Assembly (NCBI GenBank): GCA_964291285.2
Contig: OZ219786.1
Location: 864,001-928,000, forward strand
Direction: 5' to 3'
Length of the DNA: 64,000 bases
Source: Alphaproteobacteria bacterium
GTDB taxonomy: Bacteria > Pseudomonadota > Alphaproteobacteria > Bin95
Shown piece by piece: positions 1,414 to 26,712 of this stretch. Position numbers and translations under genes: made by a program. Numbering within the stretch: position 1 is the stretch's first letter; every line of letters begins with the position of its first letter. Below the pieces are notes generated by a model. That model searched no databases. It worked only from the letters and a program-made list of their open reading frames with translations, and had not been told where the DNA came from.

Positions 1414-2319
1414 ATGAAGGTTCTGGTGGTCGGGGGAACCGGCTTTATCGGGCGCCGGCTGGTGCCGCTGCTGGCGGCGCGGGGCGCGGAGGTCGTCGCG
1501 ATGGACATCGCGCCCGAGGCGGCGGATTTCGGCGACATGGCCGAGACGCGCAAGGGCGACGTGACGCAGTTCGACCAGGTGATGGCGCTCGTGGCGGAGG
1601 TGAAGCCCGACCGGCTGGTCAATCTCGCCTATTTCATCGGCGAGCTGCCGCCGCGCATCGCGCTCAAGCTCGACATTCTCGGCATGGGCAACTGCTTCGA
1701 GGCCGCCCGGCTCGGCGGCGTCGCGCACACCGTCTATGCGAGTTCGCTTGCGGTCAGCGGCCTCCAGAGCCATTTCGGCGAGCGCGCGGCGGACGAGGAC
1801 GACCACCGCTACGGTGACAACCAGTACGCCATGCACAAGATTTTCAACGAGTGGCAGGCGCGCGACTACACGGAGAAATACGGCATGGCGATCACCGGCA
1901 TCAGGCCGGCGAACGTGACCGGGCCCGACAAGATCTACGGGTCCATCGACCATGTGCGCTGCGTCACCTTCCCGGCCCGCGGCGAGCCCGTCAGCTTCCC
2001 CCATGCCGACGCGATGCGCGCGCCCGTCCATGTGGACGATGTGGCGGAGGCGTTCGCGCGCGTCTCGCTGGCCGAAGCGCCGCAGCACCGGATCTACAAT
2101 ACGGGCGGCCACGCCATCTCGATGGGCGATCTCGCGGCGCTGGTGCGCGAGTTCCTGCCGGACGCCGACATCTCCTTCGAGCAGGCGACCGGCGGGCGGG
2201 CCGGTTCCGGCAATTTCCTGATCGACAACAGCCGCCTGGTGGAGGAGTTCGCCCTGCAATACGCCCCCTTCCGGGACCGCGTACGCCAGATCATCGAGGC
2301 GGTGCAGGCGGAGGGCTGA
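1414..2319 (+). CDS. NAD-dependent epimerase/dehydratase (extended SDR)
   Basis: GGTGFIG Rossmann motif and YAMHK (YxxxK). Confidence 0.9.
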   Translation: MKVLVVGGTGFIGRRLVPLLAARGAEVVAMDIAPEAADFGDMAETRKGDVTQFDQVMALVAEVKPDRLVNLAYFIGELPPRIALKLDILGMGNCFEAARLGGVAHTVYASSLAVSGLQSHFGERAADEDDHRYGDNQYAMHKIFNEWQARDYTEKYGMAITGIRPANVTGPDKIYGSIDHVRCVTFPARGEPVSFPHADAMRAPVHVDDVAEAFARVSLAEAPQHRIYNTGGHAISMGDLAALVREFLPDADISFEQATGGRAGSGNFLIDNSRLVEEFALQYAPFRDRVRQIIEAVQAEG

Positions 2320-2434
2320 GGCGCGGCGCGCGGCCGCGGCACCTCTGTTCGTCACCCCGGGCCGCGATCCGGAGGCCGGGGTGGGCTATGTGCCGCGAGC
2401 AAAATATGAATGATTTCTAATATTTCTGACTTTT

Positions 2435-2476
2435 GTTCGTATTTTGATCTTGACATCTGGCGGATTGTGATATGAT
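2435..2476 (+). promoter_or_regulatory. Sigma70-type promoter (TTGACA plus extended -10 TGnTATGAT) preceded by a possible alphaproteobacterial LexA box
   Basis: TTGACA at 2450-2455 and TATGAT at 2471-2476 (short 15-nt spacer, TG extension), AT-rich upstream, GTTC-N7-GATC at 2435-2449. Confidence 0.5.
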
Positions 2477-2708
2477 GGTCCCCAGGGAAGCGGACTCCGG
2501 AGCCGCGTCCCCGGGTGCCGCACGGCCGAGCGGCGCCAGTTTTTGAAAACCCGTGAGAAGCCGACGGGAGACGTGTGTCCTCTGCCTCGCGCGCGCAATC
2601 AGGCGCGCGAACCGCGCCGCCGCGACACGCGCGCCGGCACGCGCACAGGCGCCCGCGCAGGATACGCGCGGAAAAGGGACCCGCTCCCCGTCGGAGCAAG
2701 GAGGAACG

Positions 2709-2948
2709 ATGACGGCAACCGACCCCCAACTGGCGGCGATGCCGGCCGAAAGGCTCGCGCCGGCCGCGGCCCTGGCCAGCGCCTGTGCGGAGGACGACCG
2801 CGCCGTCCGGGGCGACGGACAAGGGCCATGGGGCTGCGCCAGCCCGCAGACGGAAGGGAAGAGTCATGAAATGGAGCGTTATGCCCGGACGGGCTGCAGG
2901 GCATGCCCGCCGCACATGCAGATCATGACATCTCATGACATTCCATGA
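2709..2948 (+). CDS. Putative small protein (79 aa) within the repeat cassette
   Basis: Strong RBS AAGGAGG before ATG 2709. No recognisable domain, and the peptide is not conserved in copy 2. Confidence 0.3.
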   Translation: MTATDPQLAAMPAERLAPAAALASACAEDDRAVRGDGQGPWGCASPQTEGKSHEMERYARTGCRACPPHMQIMTSHDIP

Positions 2949-3003
2949 CACATGGCGAGGGAGGTCCGGCGCGCCTCATGACAAAACATGACATCTCATG
3001 ACA
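2924..3003 (+). repeat. Two triplets of CATGACA at exact 10-bp periodicity
   Basis: CATGACA starts at 2924, 2934, 2944 and at 2977, 2987, 2997. Confidence 0.95.
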
Positions 3004-3062
3004 TCTGCCGGGGAGGCCGGGCAGCCGCGCTTTCCGCGGCCTTTGCCGGAACCCGGTCCGGT

Positions 3063-4145
3063 TCAGCCGCGCAGCGCCGGGAGGACCTCGGTCTCGATCA
3101 GCTGCTTCGCGACCGGCCCGGCGCCGCCTCTGGCGCTGCGCCAATTGCCGTTGACGACGATCTTGTCGAGCCCGAGTTCCCGCAGCCGGAGGAGTCGTTC
3201 GAGAACCCGCTCCGGCGGTCCGACAGCGGCATATTCCCGGATAAACGCCGGCGTCAGCACCGCCGCCTGGGCAGACTCGTTCTCCGTGTGCCGATGCATG
3301 TCGTAGGCCCGGCGCATCGCCTCCATCACCGCGCGGCTCTCCTCGGAGAGCGGGCCGCTCGTCCGGCCGTGCATGACGGCGAAGCGCGCGAAGACGGTCA
3401 GGTTGCCGCGCACCATGTCCTGGGCGGTTTCCATGTCGGGGTGGCAGCCGCAGGAGACGTAGGCGCCGAAGCGCAGGCCCTCCGGATCGAGGCCGGCCGC
3501 CTCGCGCGCCGCCCGGGCGGTGGCGATGCCCCAGGCAATGCGCTCCGGCGAGGCGCCGAGCGCGAACATCACCCGGTCGGCCCGGCGCGCCGCGATGGCG
3601 ATAACCTTCGGTCCCGTCGCCGCGACCTCGACCGACGCCTTGCCGTCCCGCGCCGCAGCGCCGGCCATCCACCGGATGCGGCTCGCCTCCGGCGTCTCGG
3701 CGAGCGCCAGCGTCTCCACCGGCGGCGCGGATGCGGCCGGGATATCGACCAGCTCGTCGAACGCCACCTGGCCGCCCGACAGATAGGCCTGGAGGTGGGT
3801 GAGATAGCGCTCGAACTGCCCGAGCCGCGCCGGGGCCCGGCCGAGATGGGCGAGCGCGGAATCGCCGCGGCCGATGCCGAGCGTCATCCGCCCGCGCGAG
3901 ACGCTGTTGACCGTGGCCGCCGCCGAGGCCAGCACCGCGGCCGTCCGCGTGACCGGATTGGAAACGCCGGTGCCGAGCCTGAGGCGCCGGGTCACGGTGG
4001 CCGCCATGGCCAGCGCGACGAAGGAGTCGGCCGCGAGGTTCTGGGAATCGACGACATTGACGCCGTCCCAGCCGCTTTCCTCCAGCGCCCGCGCCTCGTG
4101 CAGAATGCCGCGCGGCGCGGGCATGCAATTGGTCCAGATTTCCAT
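3063..4145 (-). CDS. LLM-class (luciferase-like) flavin-dependent oxidoreductase
   Basis: RLRLGTGVSNPVTR, GRMTLGIGRGD and ATGPK motifs; start MEIWTN. Confidence 0.88.
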   Translation of the reverse strand: MEIWTNCMPAPRGILHEARALEESGWDGVNVVDSQNLAADSFVALAMAATVTRRLRLGTGVSNPVTRTAAVLASAAATVNSVSRGRMTLGIGRGDSALAHLGRAPARLGQFERYLTHLQAYLSGGQVAFDELVDIPAASAPPVETLALAETPEASRIRWMAGAAARDGKASVEVAATGPKVIAIAARRADRVMFALGASPERIAWGIATARAAREAAGLDPEGLRFGAYVSCGCHPDMETAQDMVRGNLTVFARFAVMHGRTSGPLSEESRAVMEAMRRAYDMHRHTENESAQAAVLTPAFIREYAAVGPPERVLERLLRLRELGLDKIVVNGNWRSARGGAGPVAKQLIETEVLPALRG

Positions 4146-4301
4146 GAGCCCCCGGCTCCCTCCCTGCGGGCAAGACACGCGGACCGGATTATTCCCGCTT
4201 CCGCGCTGCCCGCAACCGCCGGCCGTTTCCTTGCAGCGGCCGGTCGTGGCAGTCTCGGCGCCCGGGCCCGGTCCCCGCCGGGGCAATGCAGGAGTTGGAC
4301 C

Positions 4302-5171
4302 ATGAACCGACTGTTCACCGAAGCCGAGTCCGCCGACATCGTCATCGAACGGCTGGACGGCTGCGACGATCCCCGGTTCCGCGAAGTGATGGAGGCCGCC
4401 ATCCGGCACCTGCACGCCTTCGTGAAGGAGGTGGAGCCCACCGTGGAGGAATGGTCGCGGGCCATCGGGTTCCTGACGGCCACAGGGCAAATGTGCGACG
4501 ACCGGCGCCAGGAGTGGGTGCTGGCCTCCGACGTGCTCGGCGTTTCCATGCTGGTGGAGACCCTGAACAACCGTTCCGAGGGCGGCGCCACCGAGGCGAC
4601 GGTGCTCGGCCCCTTCCATGTGGAGGGCGCGCCGCAACTCGAGCCCGGCAGCAATATCTGCCGGGACGGCAAGGGTATGCCCTGCCTCGTCTCCGGGCGC
4701 GTCACCGATGGCGAAGGCCGGCCGCTCGCCGGGGTGAGCCTCGATATCTGGCAGACCAATGCGGACGGCTTCTACGACGTGCAGCAGCCGGAGCTGCAGC
4801 CGGAGATGAACCTTCGCGGGCGGTTCCTGACGGATGCGGACGGGCGTTACGCCTTCCGCACGGTGAGGCCGGTGTCATATCCGGTGCCGACTGACGGCCC
4901 TGTCGGGGACATATTGAAGCGCATGGGCCGCCACGCCTGGCGCCCGGCCCATATCCATTTCATCGCAAGCAAGCCCGGCTACCGGCGGCTCGTGACCCAC
5001 ATCTTCGCCCATGACGACCCCTATATCGACTCGGACGCCGTGTTCGGGGTCAAGGAGTCGCTGCTGGTCGAGTTCCGCGAGTGCAGCGACGGCGCACTCG
5101 CGCAGGAGCTCGGCGTGGAATCCCCCTTCTGCACCGCCGGGTTCGATATCCGGCTCGCCCGGGAAGACTGA
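4302..5171 (+). CDS. Intradiol ring-cleavage dioxygenase (hydroxyquinol/catechol 1,2-dioxygenase family)
   Basis: TEATVLGPFH, DIWQTNADGFYDVQ and WRPAHIHF motifs; RBS AGGAG before ATG 4302. Confidence 0.92.
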   Translation: MNRLFTEAESADIVIERLDGCDDPRFREVMEAAIRHLHAFVKEVEPTVEEWSRAIGFLTATGQMCDDRRQEWVLASDVLGVSMLVETLNNRSEGGATEATVLGPFHVEGAPQLEPGSNICRDGKGMPCLVSGRVTDGEGRPLAGVSLDIWQTNADGFYDVQQPELQPEMNLRGRFLTDADGRYAFRTVRPVSYPVPTDGPVGDILKRMGRHAWRPAHIHFIASKPGYRRLVTHIFAHDDPYIDSDAVFGVKESLLVEFRECSDGALAQELGVESPFCTAGFDIRLARED

Positions 5172-11877: not shown

Positions 11878-12799
11878 GGGTGAAGCACCTTTCGGTTGTC
11901 CGGGGCGGAGGGAGTCGAGTTTGCGGCCCCGGGGGCGGAGGGCCAAGCGCGATGTGTCATGTGGATGTCATGGAATGTCATGTTCTGTCATGCGGGCCTG
12001 TCTCCGCCCCGGCCGTTTGCAAGGCATTGCAGCCTCCTTGTCGGTCTGCGGTCCCGGATGCCCCGTTGCCGGAGGAGCGCTCCTCCCGCGCGCATAATGC
12101 GCGTCCGGCCGCGCGTGCGCGCACGTGTGCGCGAAGCGGCGGGGCCGTCCCCTCCACCGTGGATGTCATGTTGTGTCATGGAGGCACGCCGCGGGACCTT
12201 CCTCCCGAGACGCCATCCCGATCCTCTTCCCATCGTGCCCGGACTTGTTCCGGGCATCTCTCCCTGGACCGTTGCAGCGGCGGAAGTGGCAAGTCCGGGC
12301 ATGACGAATGGGAGACGGGGCGGGCCATCCTTCGATACGCGGCCGGCGCCGCTGCTCAGGATGAGGGGAGGGGCCCGCTCCACGGGAATGTCACGAAATG
12401 TCATGATCTGCATGCGCGCGGCGCATATCCTGTGGTCGTTTCAGACATGAGACCACCGTTTGTCTCCCCGCCTCGCCTGCGAGGGAAGGCCGGGGCGGGA
12501 GGCCCTCTCTCGATCCGGCACGGCCTTGCCGGAACGCGCGGCCGCCGGGCCTTCTTTCGGCCCCCTCCGCAGGCGGGAGAGGCGCTTGTGTGGCGGCAGG
12601 CCATCCTGTCGAAGCCGTATTCGCCTGCATCCCGCACATCGTTCCTTCATCCCGTTTCGTTCCCTTTCATTCCCCTCTCCCCGCCGCCGGCCTGCCCGGC
12701 AAGCGGGACCCTGATTCGCGCGTATCGCGCGGGCGCGGGCGGGTGTCGGCGCCGGCGCGGTTCGCGCACCTGATTGCGCCTGCGCCTGCCCGCGCATAA

Positions 12800-13927
<1,128 letters not shown>

Positions 13928-14146
13928 CCGACAACACAGTCGCTCTCCTGTCGGCTCCCAAAGGTATTTTTCGCGTCGGCGCCAACGCGAAAGACGAAGC
14001 GGCCTCCGGATACCGCTTCGTCCGATTCAATATAACATATGATTTAGATATGTCAATTCATTTTGAGATTTATTGCCAATAATTCGAACAAATGCGTTTG
14101 CCGATCCCGCCGTTGCACGAACGGCCCATACAGACCGAATCCTGGC

Positions 14147-26532: not shown

Positions 26533-26692
26533 GCGAAGCTGCCCGGTGCGTTTGGCTAACGAAATCCCGGGGCCGTTACCGAAACTCCAGGGAGTTGTCC
26601 CTGCCGGAGTCCTGGCTTCGGCACACGACGCCCACCTCAATGGCGAGGGTCCCGGAGGATTGGCTTGAGACCGACGGCCAGGGCGGCTTCGC
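26533..26692 (+). ncRNA. ssrS: 6S RNA
   Basis: About 160 nt between zapA and ygfA; closing stem GCGAAGCTGCCC/GGGCGGCTTCGC and inner stem CCGGGGCC/GGTCCCGG. Confidence 0.85.
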
Positions 26693-26712
26693 TTGCCTCC
26701 GCCAAGGCGGCC

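Follow-up and report, generated by a model that had tools for sequence, protein, structure and literature searches.

The stretch of Alphaproteobacteria bacterium DNA analysed here (64,000 nucleotides of contig OZ219786.1, hereafter the window) raises the question of whether two regions on opposite strands, which share a promoter-like site, a hairpin, several short motifs and phased CATGACA boxes in the same order, are copies of one element, and what kind of element they represent. The features listed for both copies in the initial annotation were all recovered in place. The first region (copy A, 2397-3011, forward strand) is built as follows.

2397..2450, +: AT-rich upstream block with a TTGTTC motif and TTTGTTCG (2433-2440); left limit of between-copy similarity
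2451..2477, +: promoter-like site, TTGACA (2451-2456), 15-nt spacer, TGaTATGAT (extended -10, 2469-2477)
2485..2511, +: 5' hairpin H1, GGGAAGCGG / CCGCGTCCC, apex TCCGGA
2514..2547, +: another hairpin, with a terminator-like T-run behind it; restricted to subfamily 1 in this form
2546..2694, +: sequence-conserved leader core (96 genome places), with AGCCGACGGGAGACGTGTGTCCT (2559-2581), GCGCAATCAGGCGCGCGAACCGCGCCG (2593-2619) and GATACGCGCG..GGGACCCGCT (2662-2686)
2699..2948, +: Shine-Dalgarno sequence and remnant ORF MTATDPQLAAMPAERLAPAA...; AGGAACGATG, ATG at 2710, frame open to 2948
2916..3011, +: two triple CATGACA clusters in 10-bp phase with a 26-nt spacer, box starts 2924/2934/2944 and 2977/2987/2997, CATGCAGATCATGACAT at 2916-2932; right cassette limit

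Copy B (~14100-11955, reverse strand) has its parts in the same order as copy A and is interrupted by an IS110-family element.

14029..14100, -: AT-rich block and promoter TTGACA-16-TATATT with TG (11/12 matches)
13993..14022, -: hairpin H1, GACGAAGCGG / CCGCTTCGTC
12826..13941, +: IS110-family element in the leader core, between ..GGAGAG and GTGCG..
12690..12825, -: 3' part of the leader core, with GCGCAATCAGGTGCGCGAACCGCGCCG at 12779-12753
11955..12639, -: remnant ORF (12639-12391), boxes and inserts

The first boxes of copy B lie at ~12405-12385 and the final ones at 11991-11955, with an inserted stretch and an optional module of ~200 nt between the clusters; seven boxes in all were located at genome positions C2:875955-876399.

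A family of scattered cassettes

The core (2540-2700) matched 96 places in the 6.1-Mb genome, which bears out the proposal that the two regions belong to a repeated family with motif-level conservation and are not a two-copy coincidence. The members are small cassettes scattered through the genome, about 100 per genome, with sizes from 0.5 to 1.6 kb and one gene or none; the full unit spans ~1.6 kb. The order of parts is an AT-rich block, a sigma-70-like promoter, the 5' hairpin, a GC-rich leader of ~150 nt that is conserved in sequence, a cargo region and the CATGACA boxes. Individual copies combine promoter, hairpin and cargo variants in mosaic fashion. All of them are intergenic (0/93 fell inside crude gene models), and they mark synteny breakpoints. 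No orientation bias to the neighbours was found: of 72 genes lying within 400 bp downstream, 35 shared the strand of the cassette. A promoter role for adjacent genes was dropped for this reason.

The promoter assigned to both copies was reported by the consensus scan in copy B and not in copy A, whose 15-nt spacer makes the scan skip it. Across the family, 58 of 88 cassettes contained a looser promoter pattern, which turned up in 20% of shuffled windows, and the 100-nt promoter block had a median G+C content of 49% vs 68% for the genome. The promoter elements are kept and the spacers between them have diverged. Similarity among subfamily-1 copies begins ~55 nt upstream of the -35 element. In copy A, 16 nt of the promoter-like region (TCTTGACATCTGGCGG) are identical at 14 of 16 positions to the last box and its flank (2996-3011).

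A motif search in related genomes had been suggested, and it located the family in 13 of the 16 other genomes of the genus. The same 13 genomes gave strong leader matches and contained triple boxes (7-171 per genome), and 11 of them had a Terminase_2 gene. Neither boxes nor Terminase_2 were detected in G001, G003 and G013; no leader match was obtained in the former two and a single marginal one (E 4.9e-4) in G013. Boxes, leader and gene are thus co-present or co-absent across the genus, and no boxes were found in any of 24 genomes outside it. Genome G008 lacks Terminase_2, and its short cassettes number at least 40, with only 7 intact triple boxes; many of its arrays looked eroded by eye, and its promoters and leaders are numerous and well conserved.

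The cassettes are also targets of insertion sequences. The IS110 assignment of the insert in copy B was confirmed by the Pfam domains DEDD_Tnp_IS110 and Transposase_20 in the product of 12896-13927. This element is present in 13 copies at 100% identity, all with GGAGAG(C) on the left flank (13/13); GTG or GTT stands on the right of the nine full-length copies (1116 nt), and at least 5 of the 13 lie inside cassette cores. Hence, insertion by this DEDD transposase with a Transposase_20 domain is sequence-specific, and the ends of the element are uncertain by ~8 nt because all insertion sites share these flanks. Three IS families insert into cassettes at fixed points, the transposases found being of IS110, IS3 and IS4-like type, which makes the cassette a preferred landing site for all three.

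Phased boxes and cargo genes

CATGACA occurs 901 times in the genome vs ~316 expected. Neighbouring boxes are spaced by exactly 10 bp in 252 cases, the next commonest spacing being 21 bp (22 cases), and Tandem Repeats Finder reported period 10 in both arrays of copy A. The triple-box pattern was found 110 times in this genome and its reversed control not once. Of the 101 clusters with at least three boxes, 85 are preceded on the same strand by a core at a distance of up to 2.5 kb, and 16 are not. In the full unit there are two box clusters, and the first box overlaps the last codons of the gene. At the left ends of the cassettes, direct box-like motifs with up to one mismatch were present in 24 of 88 copies vs 9.4 expected; exact inverted boxes were present in 0 of 88 here and in 5 of 29 in G008 (0.1 expected). 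Relatives with 44-60% protein identity have a different promoter and lack the GC-rich leader. In about 13 such distant loci, read directly, nine keep three (C/A)(A/C)TGAC(A/G) boxes with 10-bp spacing 3' of the gene.

The decisive check was the search for copies with a full-length ORF. The initial annotation had anticipated copies carrying an enzyme; larger genes were indeed found, namely ten Terminase_2 genes and four or five genes of a second type, but the former specify a DNA-binding, small-terminase-like protein and no enzyme. The ten intact genes, one of which lies at genome positions C2:1364010-1365000, encode products of 329-347 aa, with Pfam Terminase_2 at residues 11-70 (E 1.2e-10, 42.6 bits vs a cut-off of 26.1). 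PHROG searches matched terS families, and profile matches to the PDB were the SF6 G1P DNA-binding-domain structures 4zc3, 2cmp and 3zqp (E ~1e-4). The DNA-binding domain was modelled with pLDDT >90 and superimposes on 4zc3 with a TM score of 0.85 and an rmsd of 1.5 A (41% identity over 56 columns). From sequence profiles and the model, the N-terminus is assigned as a helix-turn-helix DNA-binding domain of the SPP1/SF6 G1P small-terminase type. It is followed by two long helices (52-90 and 93-107, pLDDT 65-76) and an acidic, mostly disordered tail, and the protein has a lysine/arginine cluster. The top full-length fold match was SF6 TerS (3zqq), a weak one (E 6.7e-3, TM 0.38), and the four-copy self-assembly prediction for residues 1-115 (score 0.10, mark 0.42) speaks neither for nor against a ring, which in terminases of this type has 8-11 subunits.

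Median dN/dS was 0.20 (448 pairs from 31 genes, first 110 codons), which indicates that the TerS-like gene is under purifying selection and functional. The 12 Terminase_2 matches of the genome are all in single-gene cassettes, with neither a large terminase gene nor a morphogenesis module beside any copy. TerL_ATPase had no match in the genome, and the one Terminase_6N match, away from cassettes, scored 17.5 bits, below the cut-off. No close relative of the gene was found in a viral contig collection, where six matches (34-47% identity) were confined to the DNA-binding domain. In the ten intact copies the gene is 94-99% identical vs ~66% for the promoter block; this points to gene conversion and blurs any inference of recent movement. 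Recent homogenisation with an abrupt 5' limit, either at the -35 element or at the start site, was considered and discarded, the alignment being a gradient with no step.

The second cargo, carried by four or five units, is an acidic protein of ~200 aa (MTATDP, 192-234 aa). It has no Pfam family, one weak PHROG match (E 0.023) and atlas matches below 0.9, and is not similar to the TerS-like protein. Sorting of 93 cassettes gave 18 of TerS type, 8 of MTATDP type and 67 without a detectable remnant. Among the 18, ten are near full length and eight hold just the first 24-65 codons. Most units are thus internally deleted, and this includes both window copies, in keeping with their earlier description as non-autonomous. 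The ORF of about 80 codons, formerly taken as a feature of the cassette, is instead a leftover of larger cargo genes. That of copy A would descend by truncation from the MTATDP gene (192-234 aa), as judged from N-termini compared by eye; tblastn (E<=1e-3) does not pick it up as an MTATDP remnant. Nearly all gene-less copies retain promoter and leader, an observation that runs against a view in which the boxes alone act in cis.

A comparison with empty sites in relatives had also been suggested, and occupancy did differ at orthologous sites. Depending on the species, the site that follows one particular gene carries a full cassette, a remnant or nothing; two sites empty in this genome are filled in relatives, and one that is full here has only the last three boxes in G002. 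One cassette site is kept across several species. In three filled-vs-empty comparisons (flank identity 85-93%) no consistent target duplication was found: a possible repeat of 9-10 nt (GGGCTTCGC) was visible at one of the three sites and none was clean. Nor did a repeat search of copy A yield an inverted pair joining both ends.

The 5' hairpin and the leader

Compensatory changes in the hairpin had been noticed between the two copies. Covariation was assessed on 73 hairpins from this genome and relatives; the rows are related, each was centred on its own best hairpin, and 8 of 81 were dropped as mis-centred. Pairing was retained in 89.0% of cells vs 83.6% in shuffled sets (reached by 0 of 500) and 37-60% with the partner slid. 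Four of nine pairs change on both sides, with 37 two-sided cells vs 9.2 in shuffles, and the 72 distinct hairpins are more stable with their own arms (-23.2 kcal/mol) than with swapped arms (-18.3 kcal/mol). The 5' hairpin therefore covaries, and the changes seen in two copies hold in the larger set. Palindrome-centre scoring gave 9-10, the same as in shuffles, and was set aside, as were z-scores for windows that had been selected by energy and are biased for that reason. Taken singly, H1 folds at -21.4 kcal/mol in copy A (z -1.54) and -21.3 kcal/mol in copy B (z -4.19; 1 of 200 shuffles equally stable). The second hairpin of copy A has 8 pairs followed by AGTTTTTGAA; in other subfamilies a hairpin CGCGCCGGCGCG is followed by an A-run and not a T-run.

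The idea of a structured-RNA family stood for this first hairpin and found no support in the rest of the leader. In copy A the core 2555-2700 folds with z -3.26 and a local hairpin at 2586-2612 with z -4.37, and the leader core contains CGCGCGC-AATCAG-GCGCGCG and GATACGCGCG..GGG.CCCGC. The alignment of 59 leaders has many invariant columns, and RNAalifold proposed 17 pairs for it, none compensatory; an earlier consensus fold on 88 leaders was poor. A family-wide long-range helix was rejected, as pairing of AGCCGAC.GG with the region past the core is limited to two subfamilies (CCGACGGG/CCCGTCGG in 10 copies of subfamily 1; CGACAGGCG/TGCCTGTCG in 5 copies, part of subfamily 2), and the longest complementary run averages 5.7 nt vs 5.3 nt in the control. 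At Rfam gathering thresholds the window yielded only a 6S RNA (26533-26693), and a permissive search of 2300-3100 gave best E-values of 3.5 and 7.8, in agreement with the earlier statement that no known class of non-coding RNA fits.

The element had been called transcribed, and here the earlier description found no backing: relative to its flanks, the leader was no richer in RNA-library contigs than in DNA contigs. The core/flank ratio of summed depth was ~113-fold in metatranscriptome X21 vs ~212-fold in the DNA-like run X1, some X21 contigs extend upstream of the presumed promoter and start, and runs X22 and X23 scarcely cover the element. RNA-library coverage thus favours neither transcription nor its absence.

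Known systems and competing explanations

The arrangement cannot be assigned to any named class of repeats or mobile elements, and no Rfam, MITE or satellite definition matched it. Among the papers listed in literature searches of titles and abstracts, none described such a cassette and none linked a terminase with MITEs or other non-autonomous elements. Correia, BIME and RIME elements are mosaic intergenic repeats that carry promoters. Like these and MITEs, the cassettes are intergenic, numerous and divided into subfamilies, have internal deletions that retain both ends, differ in presence at orthologous sites, lie at synteny breakpoints and are targets of other IS. Unlike MITEs, they have no terminal inverted repeats or consistent target duplication, each copy keeps a full promoter and a leader of ~200 nt, and the full-length cassette encodes a TerS-like or MTATDP protein with no transposase or recombinase domain. 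A phage satellite is a single-copy island of 5-20 kb that contains an integrase as well as genes for regulation and replication. Satellites of the PICI and PLE types (compare PMC11417361) resemble the cassette in having a chromosomal TerS-like gene and a candidate recognition site with no large terminase. The cassette differs from them in its size (0.5-1.6 kb), its one gene or none, the absence of an integrase and its ~100 copies. With no large terminase in the cassette, any packaging would need a helper, and we know of none.

The closest parallel is with the small terminases of the phages SPP1 and SF6. Small terminases recognise a pac or cos site and recruit TerL for packaging; for the cassette protein, the co-occurrence of gene and boxes and the 10-bp phase would be indirect signs of such a role. 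In one account (PMC4737164), three sets of direct repeats in SPP1 pac span promoters and the start of terS; in TerS rings the distance between adjacent helix-turn-helix motifs is about one turn of B-DNA, and the DNA may wrap the ring; the isolated SF6 DNA-binding domain binds pac DNA weakly and non-specifically; and the reading of pac DNA by terminase rings is described as an open question. The cassette protein shares with SF6 G1P the N-terminal helix-turn-helix domain (Terminase_2, 41% identity and TM 0.85 to 4zc3) and long helices after it. As in SPP1/SF6 pac, sets of short direct repeats adjoin the gene, promoters fall within the same small region, and the published spacing of about one DNA turn compares with boxes exactly 10 bp apart. 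The cassette differs in that its repeats lie after the gene and not before it, its gene is present 10-12 times per genome and its site ~100 times, and there is no adjoining terL, virion gene or phage context; moreover, its protein is twice as long as SF6 G1P and has a disordered, acidic tail besides a lysine/arginine cluster. Given the weak, non-specific binding described in this source for the SF6 domain, repeats near terS do not prove specific recognition.

The reading that we favour, with a probability of about 0.5, is that the cassette is a selfish, phage-derived module made of a TerS-like gene and its candidate binding site, together with non-autonomous derivatives. By analogy with terminase rings, the TerS-like protein would bind the phased boxes with one helix-turn-helix per helical turn. 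With the boxes as the presumed cis-acting site, the gene-less copies (~80) would be derivatives served in trans. Expression would be driven by the promoter and leader, which may also regulate it; the resemblance of the -35 element to a box would allow autoregulation. The least certain step is the purpose of binding. It might single out DNA that a helper phage or transfer agent then packages, so that the cassette is transduced along with neighbouring DNA, or it might serve the assembly of a recombination or transposition complex. Since neither terL nor a morphogenesis module lies nearby and TerL_ATPase has no match, the packaging partner is hypothetical. The conservation of promoter and leader in G008, which has no TerS-like gene, implies either an independent role for the leader or multiplication that needs no TerS. 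It is a doubtful, more far-reaching suggestion that the family represents a new class of selfish element whose sole protein is a small-terminase-like binder, whose ~100 sites turn it and adjoining host DNA into preferred starting points for packaging into helper-phage or transfer-agent particles, with spread by transduction, or are recognised by a TerS ring for a novel form of DNA movement, and whose gene-less copies are parasitic.

Three other explanations were weighed against this one. Were the conserved entity an RNA, that is, a small-RNA or cis-regulatory leader gene with cargo and boxes as passengers, it would fit the persistence of promoter elements between diverging spacers, the covarying hairpin, the z of -3.26 for core 2555-2700 and the status of the leader as the best-conserved part, kept even in copies without a gene. 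G008, with at least 40 promoter-leader units, no TerS-like gene and decaying boxes, points the same way, and the hairpin and T-run of subfamily 1, ~60 nt past the presumed start, could end a short RNA. We nevertheless hold it unlikely: distant relatives retain gene and boxes without such a leader, Rfam gave no match, 0 of 17 leader pairs are compensatory in 59 sequences, the long-range helix is confined to two subfamilies (5.7 vs 5.3 nt) and RNA-library contigs were not enriched. Moreover, ~100 near-identical regulatory RNA genes with no common neighbour (same strand in 35/72) would be unusual.

A site-specific recombination cassette, akin to a cis-mobilisable element or an integron cassette, also has points in its favour. 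In this view a tyrosine integrase supplied in trans would use the boxes as arm-type sites, assisted by the TerS-like protein as a DNA-bending or directionality factor, and entry and exit would take place at the box arrays. Lambda attP has three adjacent arm-type sites about one turn apart, to which the triple boxes may be comparable. Solo arrays occur, both at the orthologous site of a full cassette and in the 16 of 101 clusters without a core; left ends have box-like motifs (24/88 vs 9.4 expected; 14/16 in the -35 region of copy A); an integrase-like frame was noted by eye 3' of the boxes in the distant relatives L116 and L118; and copies are mosaic in promoter, hairpin and cargo. Yet no integrase lies in or beside any cassette of this genome, the three filled-vs-empty comparisons gave no clean att-like duplication, the left-end motifs are inconsistent (direct here, inverted in part of G008, 5/29), and the solo array of G002 retains part of the inter-cluster spacer and so resembles the outcome of a deletion, not a vacant target, all of which makes this explanation improbable in our judgement. 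Least probable is a domesticated host system, immobile now, with TerS-like proteins as transcription or nucleoid-associated factors and the arrays as their operators. Purifying selection on the gene, the site retained in several species, the solely intergenic location (0/93) and a paralogue near-identity that fits gene conversion would agree with it. Against it, there is no orientation bias to neighbouring genes, boxes and TerS-like gene are absent from three genus genomes, where the leader gives one marginal match at best, occupancy differs at orthologous sites, triple boxes vary from 7 to 171 per genome and most copies have decayed. These are the marks of a selfish, dispensable element.

The family occupies roughly 1-2% of these genomes. 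From this share, the synteny breakpoints and the use of the cassettes as a landing site by three IS families, we conclude that it is one of the main forces shaping genome structure in this uncultured lineage. It is also a trap for automatic annotation, in which its genes are labelled simply 'terminase small subunit'. If the TerS-like protein binds the boxes, the family would be a natural example of a phage genome-recognition module that escaped its phage and rose about a hundredfold in number within bacterial chromosomes. The outcome would be a simple, sequence-defined TerS-DNA pair with which to study how terminase rings read DNA, and some bacteria may carry built-in transduction hot spots.

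Architecture and copy number of the cassette

Copies A and B of the cassette had been put forward in the initial annotation, and all the motifs listed for them were found in identical order after reading and alignment of both stretches. A cassette consists of an AT-rich block, a promoter-like site, a 5' hairpin, a GC-rich leader (the core), a cargo and an array of CATGACA boxes.

Features in the window
2400-3005, forward strand: copy A
2514-2547: hairpin with T-run, copy A
about 14100-11955, reverse strand: copy B
12826-13941: IS110-family element interrupting copy B (also at 12 other genome places)
about 12200-12380: second palindromic repeat family (also at loci L153-L182 of the related genome G008, and at L048, L050 and L109)
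26533-26693, forward strand: 6S RNA (Rfam RF00013, 62.4 bits)

Features outside the window
C3:941177: IS4-like element at one fixed leader position (also in 6 other cores)
C2:1256609-1257856: IS3-family element with rve domains (also 7 other complete copies)

BLASTN against the whole genome (6.13 Mb, five contigs, 68% G+C), in which the window occupies C2:864001-928000, revealed a family far larger than two copies. The stretch 2300-3100 matched 105 places and the core 2540-2700 matched 96, with the CAATC(A/G)GG anchor present in 93 of the latter. When listed, nearly all cores had their own AT-rich block, predicted -35 (TTGACA or TTGCAT type), predicted -10 (TATGAT or TAGATA type) and 5' hairpin, and a loose promoter pattern was found in 58 of 88 cassettes vs 20% of shuffled windows. 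CATGACA occurs 901 times in the genome (about 316 expected), 252 spacings between neighbours are exactly 10 bp, and a same-strand core lies no more than 2.5 kb upstream of 85 of the 101 clusters with at least three boxes. The core lies between about 150 and 1200 nt away from the boxes, the median is four boxes per cassette, and the consensus of the last three is CATGACAaAACATGACATttCATGACA. None of 93 cassettes lies inside crude gene models, and the downstream neighbour gene, when at most 400 bp away, has the strand of the cassette in 35 of 72 cases.

The -35 of the predicted promoter resembles one more box, since the region 2448-2463 (TCTTGACATCTGGCGG) is identical at 14 of 16 positions to the last box and its flank at 2996-3011 (TCATGACATCTGCCGG). 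Direct box-like motifs were present at 24 of 88 left ends in this genome (9.4 expected from shuffles), and inverted boxes at 5 of 29 in G008. A further module, optional and some 200 nt long, stands between two box clusters at 11990-12190 (reverse strand) and in about 10 other cassettes; it contains CGCGCATTATGCGCG and AAGGAGGCTGCAATGCC, the latter opening a tiny ORF that reads into the boxes. Members of another repeat family, short and palindromic (..GTCACCCCGGACGG..GATCCGGGGTCCAGG.., with variants), are often found next to cassettes or within them, and in G008 most cassette copies have one fused to their left end.

Cargo genes and the TerS-like protein

Full-length ORFs were found in the cassettes, as the initial annotation had thought worth looking for. 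Ten units carry an ORF of 329-347 aa whose stop lies inside the first box (...DHDKT*), and four or five carry an acidic ORF of 192-234 aa starting with MTATDP. By tblastn (E≤1e-3), 18 of 93 cassettes are of the first type (10 near full length, 8 with the first 24-65 codons only), 8 are of the MTATDP type, and 67 gave no cargo remnant. The ORF of copy A (MTATDPQLAAMPAERLAPAA...), which falls below this threshold, appears by eye to be a truncated MTATDP gene. Taken together, the larger ORFs, the tblastn remnants and this truncation indicate that the variable small ORFs, initially regarded as a feature of their own, are relics of larger cargo genes.

The larger cargo is a small-terminase (TerS)-like protein. 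Pfam assigns residues 11-70 to Terminase_2 (E 1.2e-10), the protein also matches phage terS PHROGs, and a profile of 29 sequences matches structures of the SF6 G1P DNA-binding domain. In the AlphaFold model (mean pLDDT 59.8) residues 10-60 form a confident domain; the model also has long helices (52-107) and an acidic tail that is largely disordered. The top Foldseek matches were SF6 TerS (3zqq) and the DNA-binding domain of that protein (4zc3; TM 0.85, rmsd 1.5 Å, 41% identity), followed with weak scores by PaP3 and NV1 TerS. The gene is under selection, with a median dN/dS of 0.20 over the first 110 codons (448 pairs, 31 genes from relatives).

Each of the genome's 12 Terminase_2 matches is a gene carried by a cassette. 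Profile searches of the genome gave no match for TerL_ATPase, a single one below cut-off for Terminase_6N, and a single one for Phage_capsid, which lies in a small phage-like island at C2:85000-97000, where ORF starts also suggest a possible large-terminase-like and a putative integrase-like ORF. Public databases hold 310 relatives of the protein, named, where they are named, only 'terminase small subunit'; a viral contig collection yielded six matches, each confined to the DNA-binding domain.

Leader, insertion sequences and turnover

The structured RNA proposed initially is supported for the first hairpin but not for the rest of the leader. Among 73 sequences, related rows each centred on its own best hairpin after removal of eight mis-centred ones, 89.0% of cells pair vs 83.6% when shuffled and at most 60% with the partner slid. 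Double-sided changes are seen at four of the nine pairs (one is GC 47 times and CG 19 times), and arms of the same copy fold better than arms exchanged between copies. The leader beyond this hairpin is conserved as sequence, with numerous invariant columns and compensatory change in 0 of 17 predicted pairs, and a long-range helix is confined to two subfamilies. At Rfam gathering level the only match in the window was the 6S RNA, and the best permissive matches in 2300-3100 had E values of 3.5 and 7.8.

The IS110 reported in copy B was confirmed by Pfam (DEDD_Tnp_IS110 and Transposase_20 in the product of 12896-13927). Its 13 copies are 100% identical; all are preceded by GGAGAG, the 9 full-length ones are followed by GTG or GTT, and at least 5 lie in cassette cores at an identical leader point. 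Leaders supply this GGAGAG-type short site about 90 times, and the placement fits programmable, sequence-specific targeting by this IS family. An IS4-like element (DDE_Tnp_1, 599-aa transposase, end ..TAGCCCGACTTCCGCAACTCGG) is found at ...CGCGAATTAG in seven cores. The IS3-family element, roughly 1.25 kb long with OrfA and an rve OrfB (ends TGGAGTGGGCCCC...), adjoins a CATGACA array with one end in all eight complete copies, 7 nt past the last box in seven and abutting the array in inverted orientation in one; a 3-bp duplication was seen at one inspected copy. Lone GGAGTGGGCCC remnants lie behind several box arrays.

Cassettes have been gained and lost. Comparison with empty sites, as suggested initially, showed that occupancy differs between species. 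No filled-vs-empty comparison gave sharply defined ends or a persuasive duplication of the target. Copy A is preceded by an NAD-dependent epimerase gene and followed by a luciferase-like monooxygenase gene in convergent orientation (1414-4637). The site after the epimerase gene holds a full cassette in three species, a remnant of hairpin plus boxes in two, and is empty in two. In the related genomes G006 and G007 the two flanking genes are apart, each adjoining a cassette, and therefore copy A marks a rearrangement joint. Two other sites are empty here and occupied in relatives; at one occupied here, all that G002 has is the final three boxes, 15 nt past the stop codon, an array that looks like a deletion product because a trace of the inter-cluster spacer is retained. 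Gene identity among the ten intact copies is 94-99%, vs about 66% for the promoter block, and identity climbs gradually toward the gene with no step, a pattern that fits gene conversion between copies.

Occurrence in relatives and interpretation

Occurrence of cassette parts in 16 further genomes of the genus and in 24 genomes outside it
Leader: 13 strong matches plus one marginal (G013); outside, two marginal matches (E 5.9e-4 and 8.1e-4)
Triple-box pattern: the same 13 genomes, 7-171 per genome; outside, 0
Terminase_2: 11 of the 13 with leader and boxes; outside, present in some

The TerS-like gene co-occurs with the boxes. The triple-box pattern is present 110 times in this genome, and its reversed control gave 0 in all genomes. 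G001, G003 and G013 lack both boxes and Terminase_2, and the leader is also unmatched in the first two. G014, an assembly in 460 contigs, is without the TerS-like gene, as is the complete, single-contig G008, which has at least 40 short cassettes but only 7 intact triple boxes, many of its arrays being eroded as judged by eye. A scan of the genome collection found 118 loci encoding relatives of the protein, usually several per genome; every genome concerned is metagenome-assembled and bears the title Alphaproteobacteria or Rhodospirillaceae bacterium. In relatives at 44-60% identity the strong promoter is a different one, and the 5' region is short and lacks the GC-rich leader; in nine of about 13 inspected, three (C/A)(A/C)TGAC(A/G) boxes with 10-bp spacing lie 3' of the gene. 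Since these distant relatives keep gene and boxes without the leader, the gene-box pair predates the leader. By eye, two of them (L116 and L118) show a putative P4-type integrase N-terminus frame 3' of gene and boxes, in L118 apparently truncated directly after the boxes.

No named class fits the cassette. It has neither the inverted ends nor the transposase partner of a MITE, and neither the integrase nor the island size of a phage satellite; its protein has the DNA-binding domain of the TerS family but not the genomic context. An account by TerS only is weakened by G008, because many promoter and leader copies persist there without the gene. Of the alternatives, we rank an RNA-centred reading highest, ahead of a recombination cassette and, in third place, a domesticated regulator.

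According to a published account (PMC4737164), which gives the TerS ring geometry and describes the SPP1 pac region as repeat-rich, DNA binding by the isolated TerS domain is weak and non-specific. The TerS-like protein of the cassettes is inferred to bind the CATGACA boxes, and such binding could serve packaging, recombination or regulation. The 10-bp phase of the boxes fits that ring geometry and the repeat-rich SPP1 pac region.
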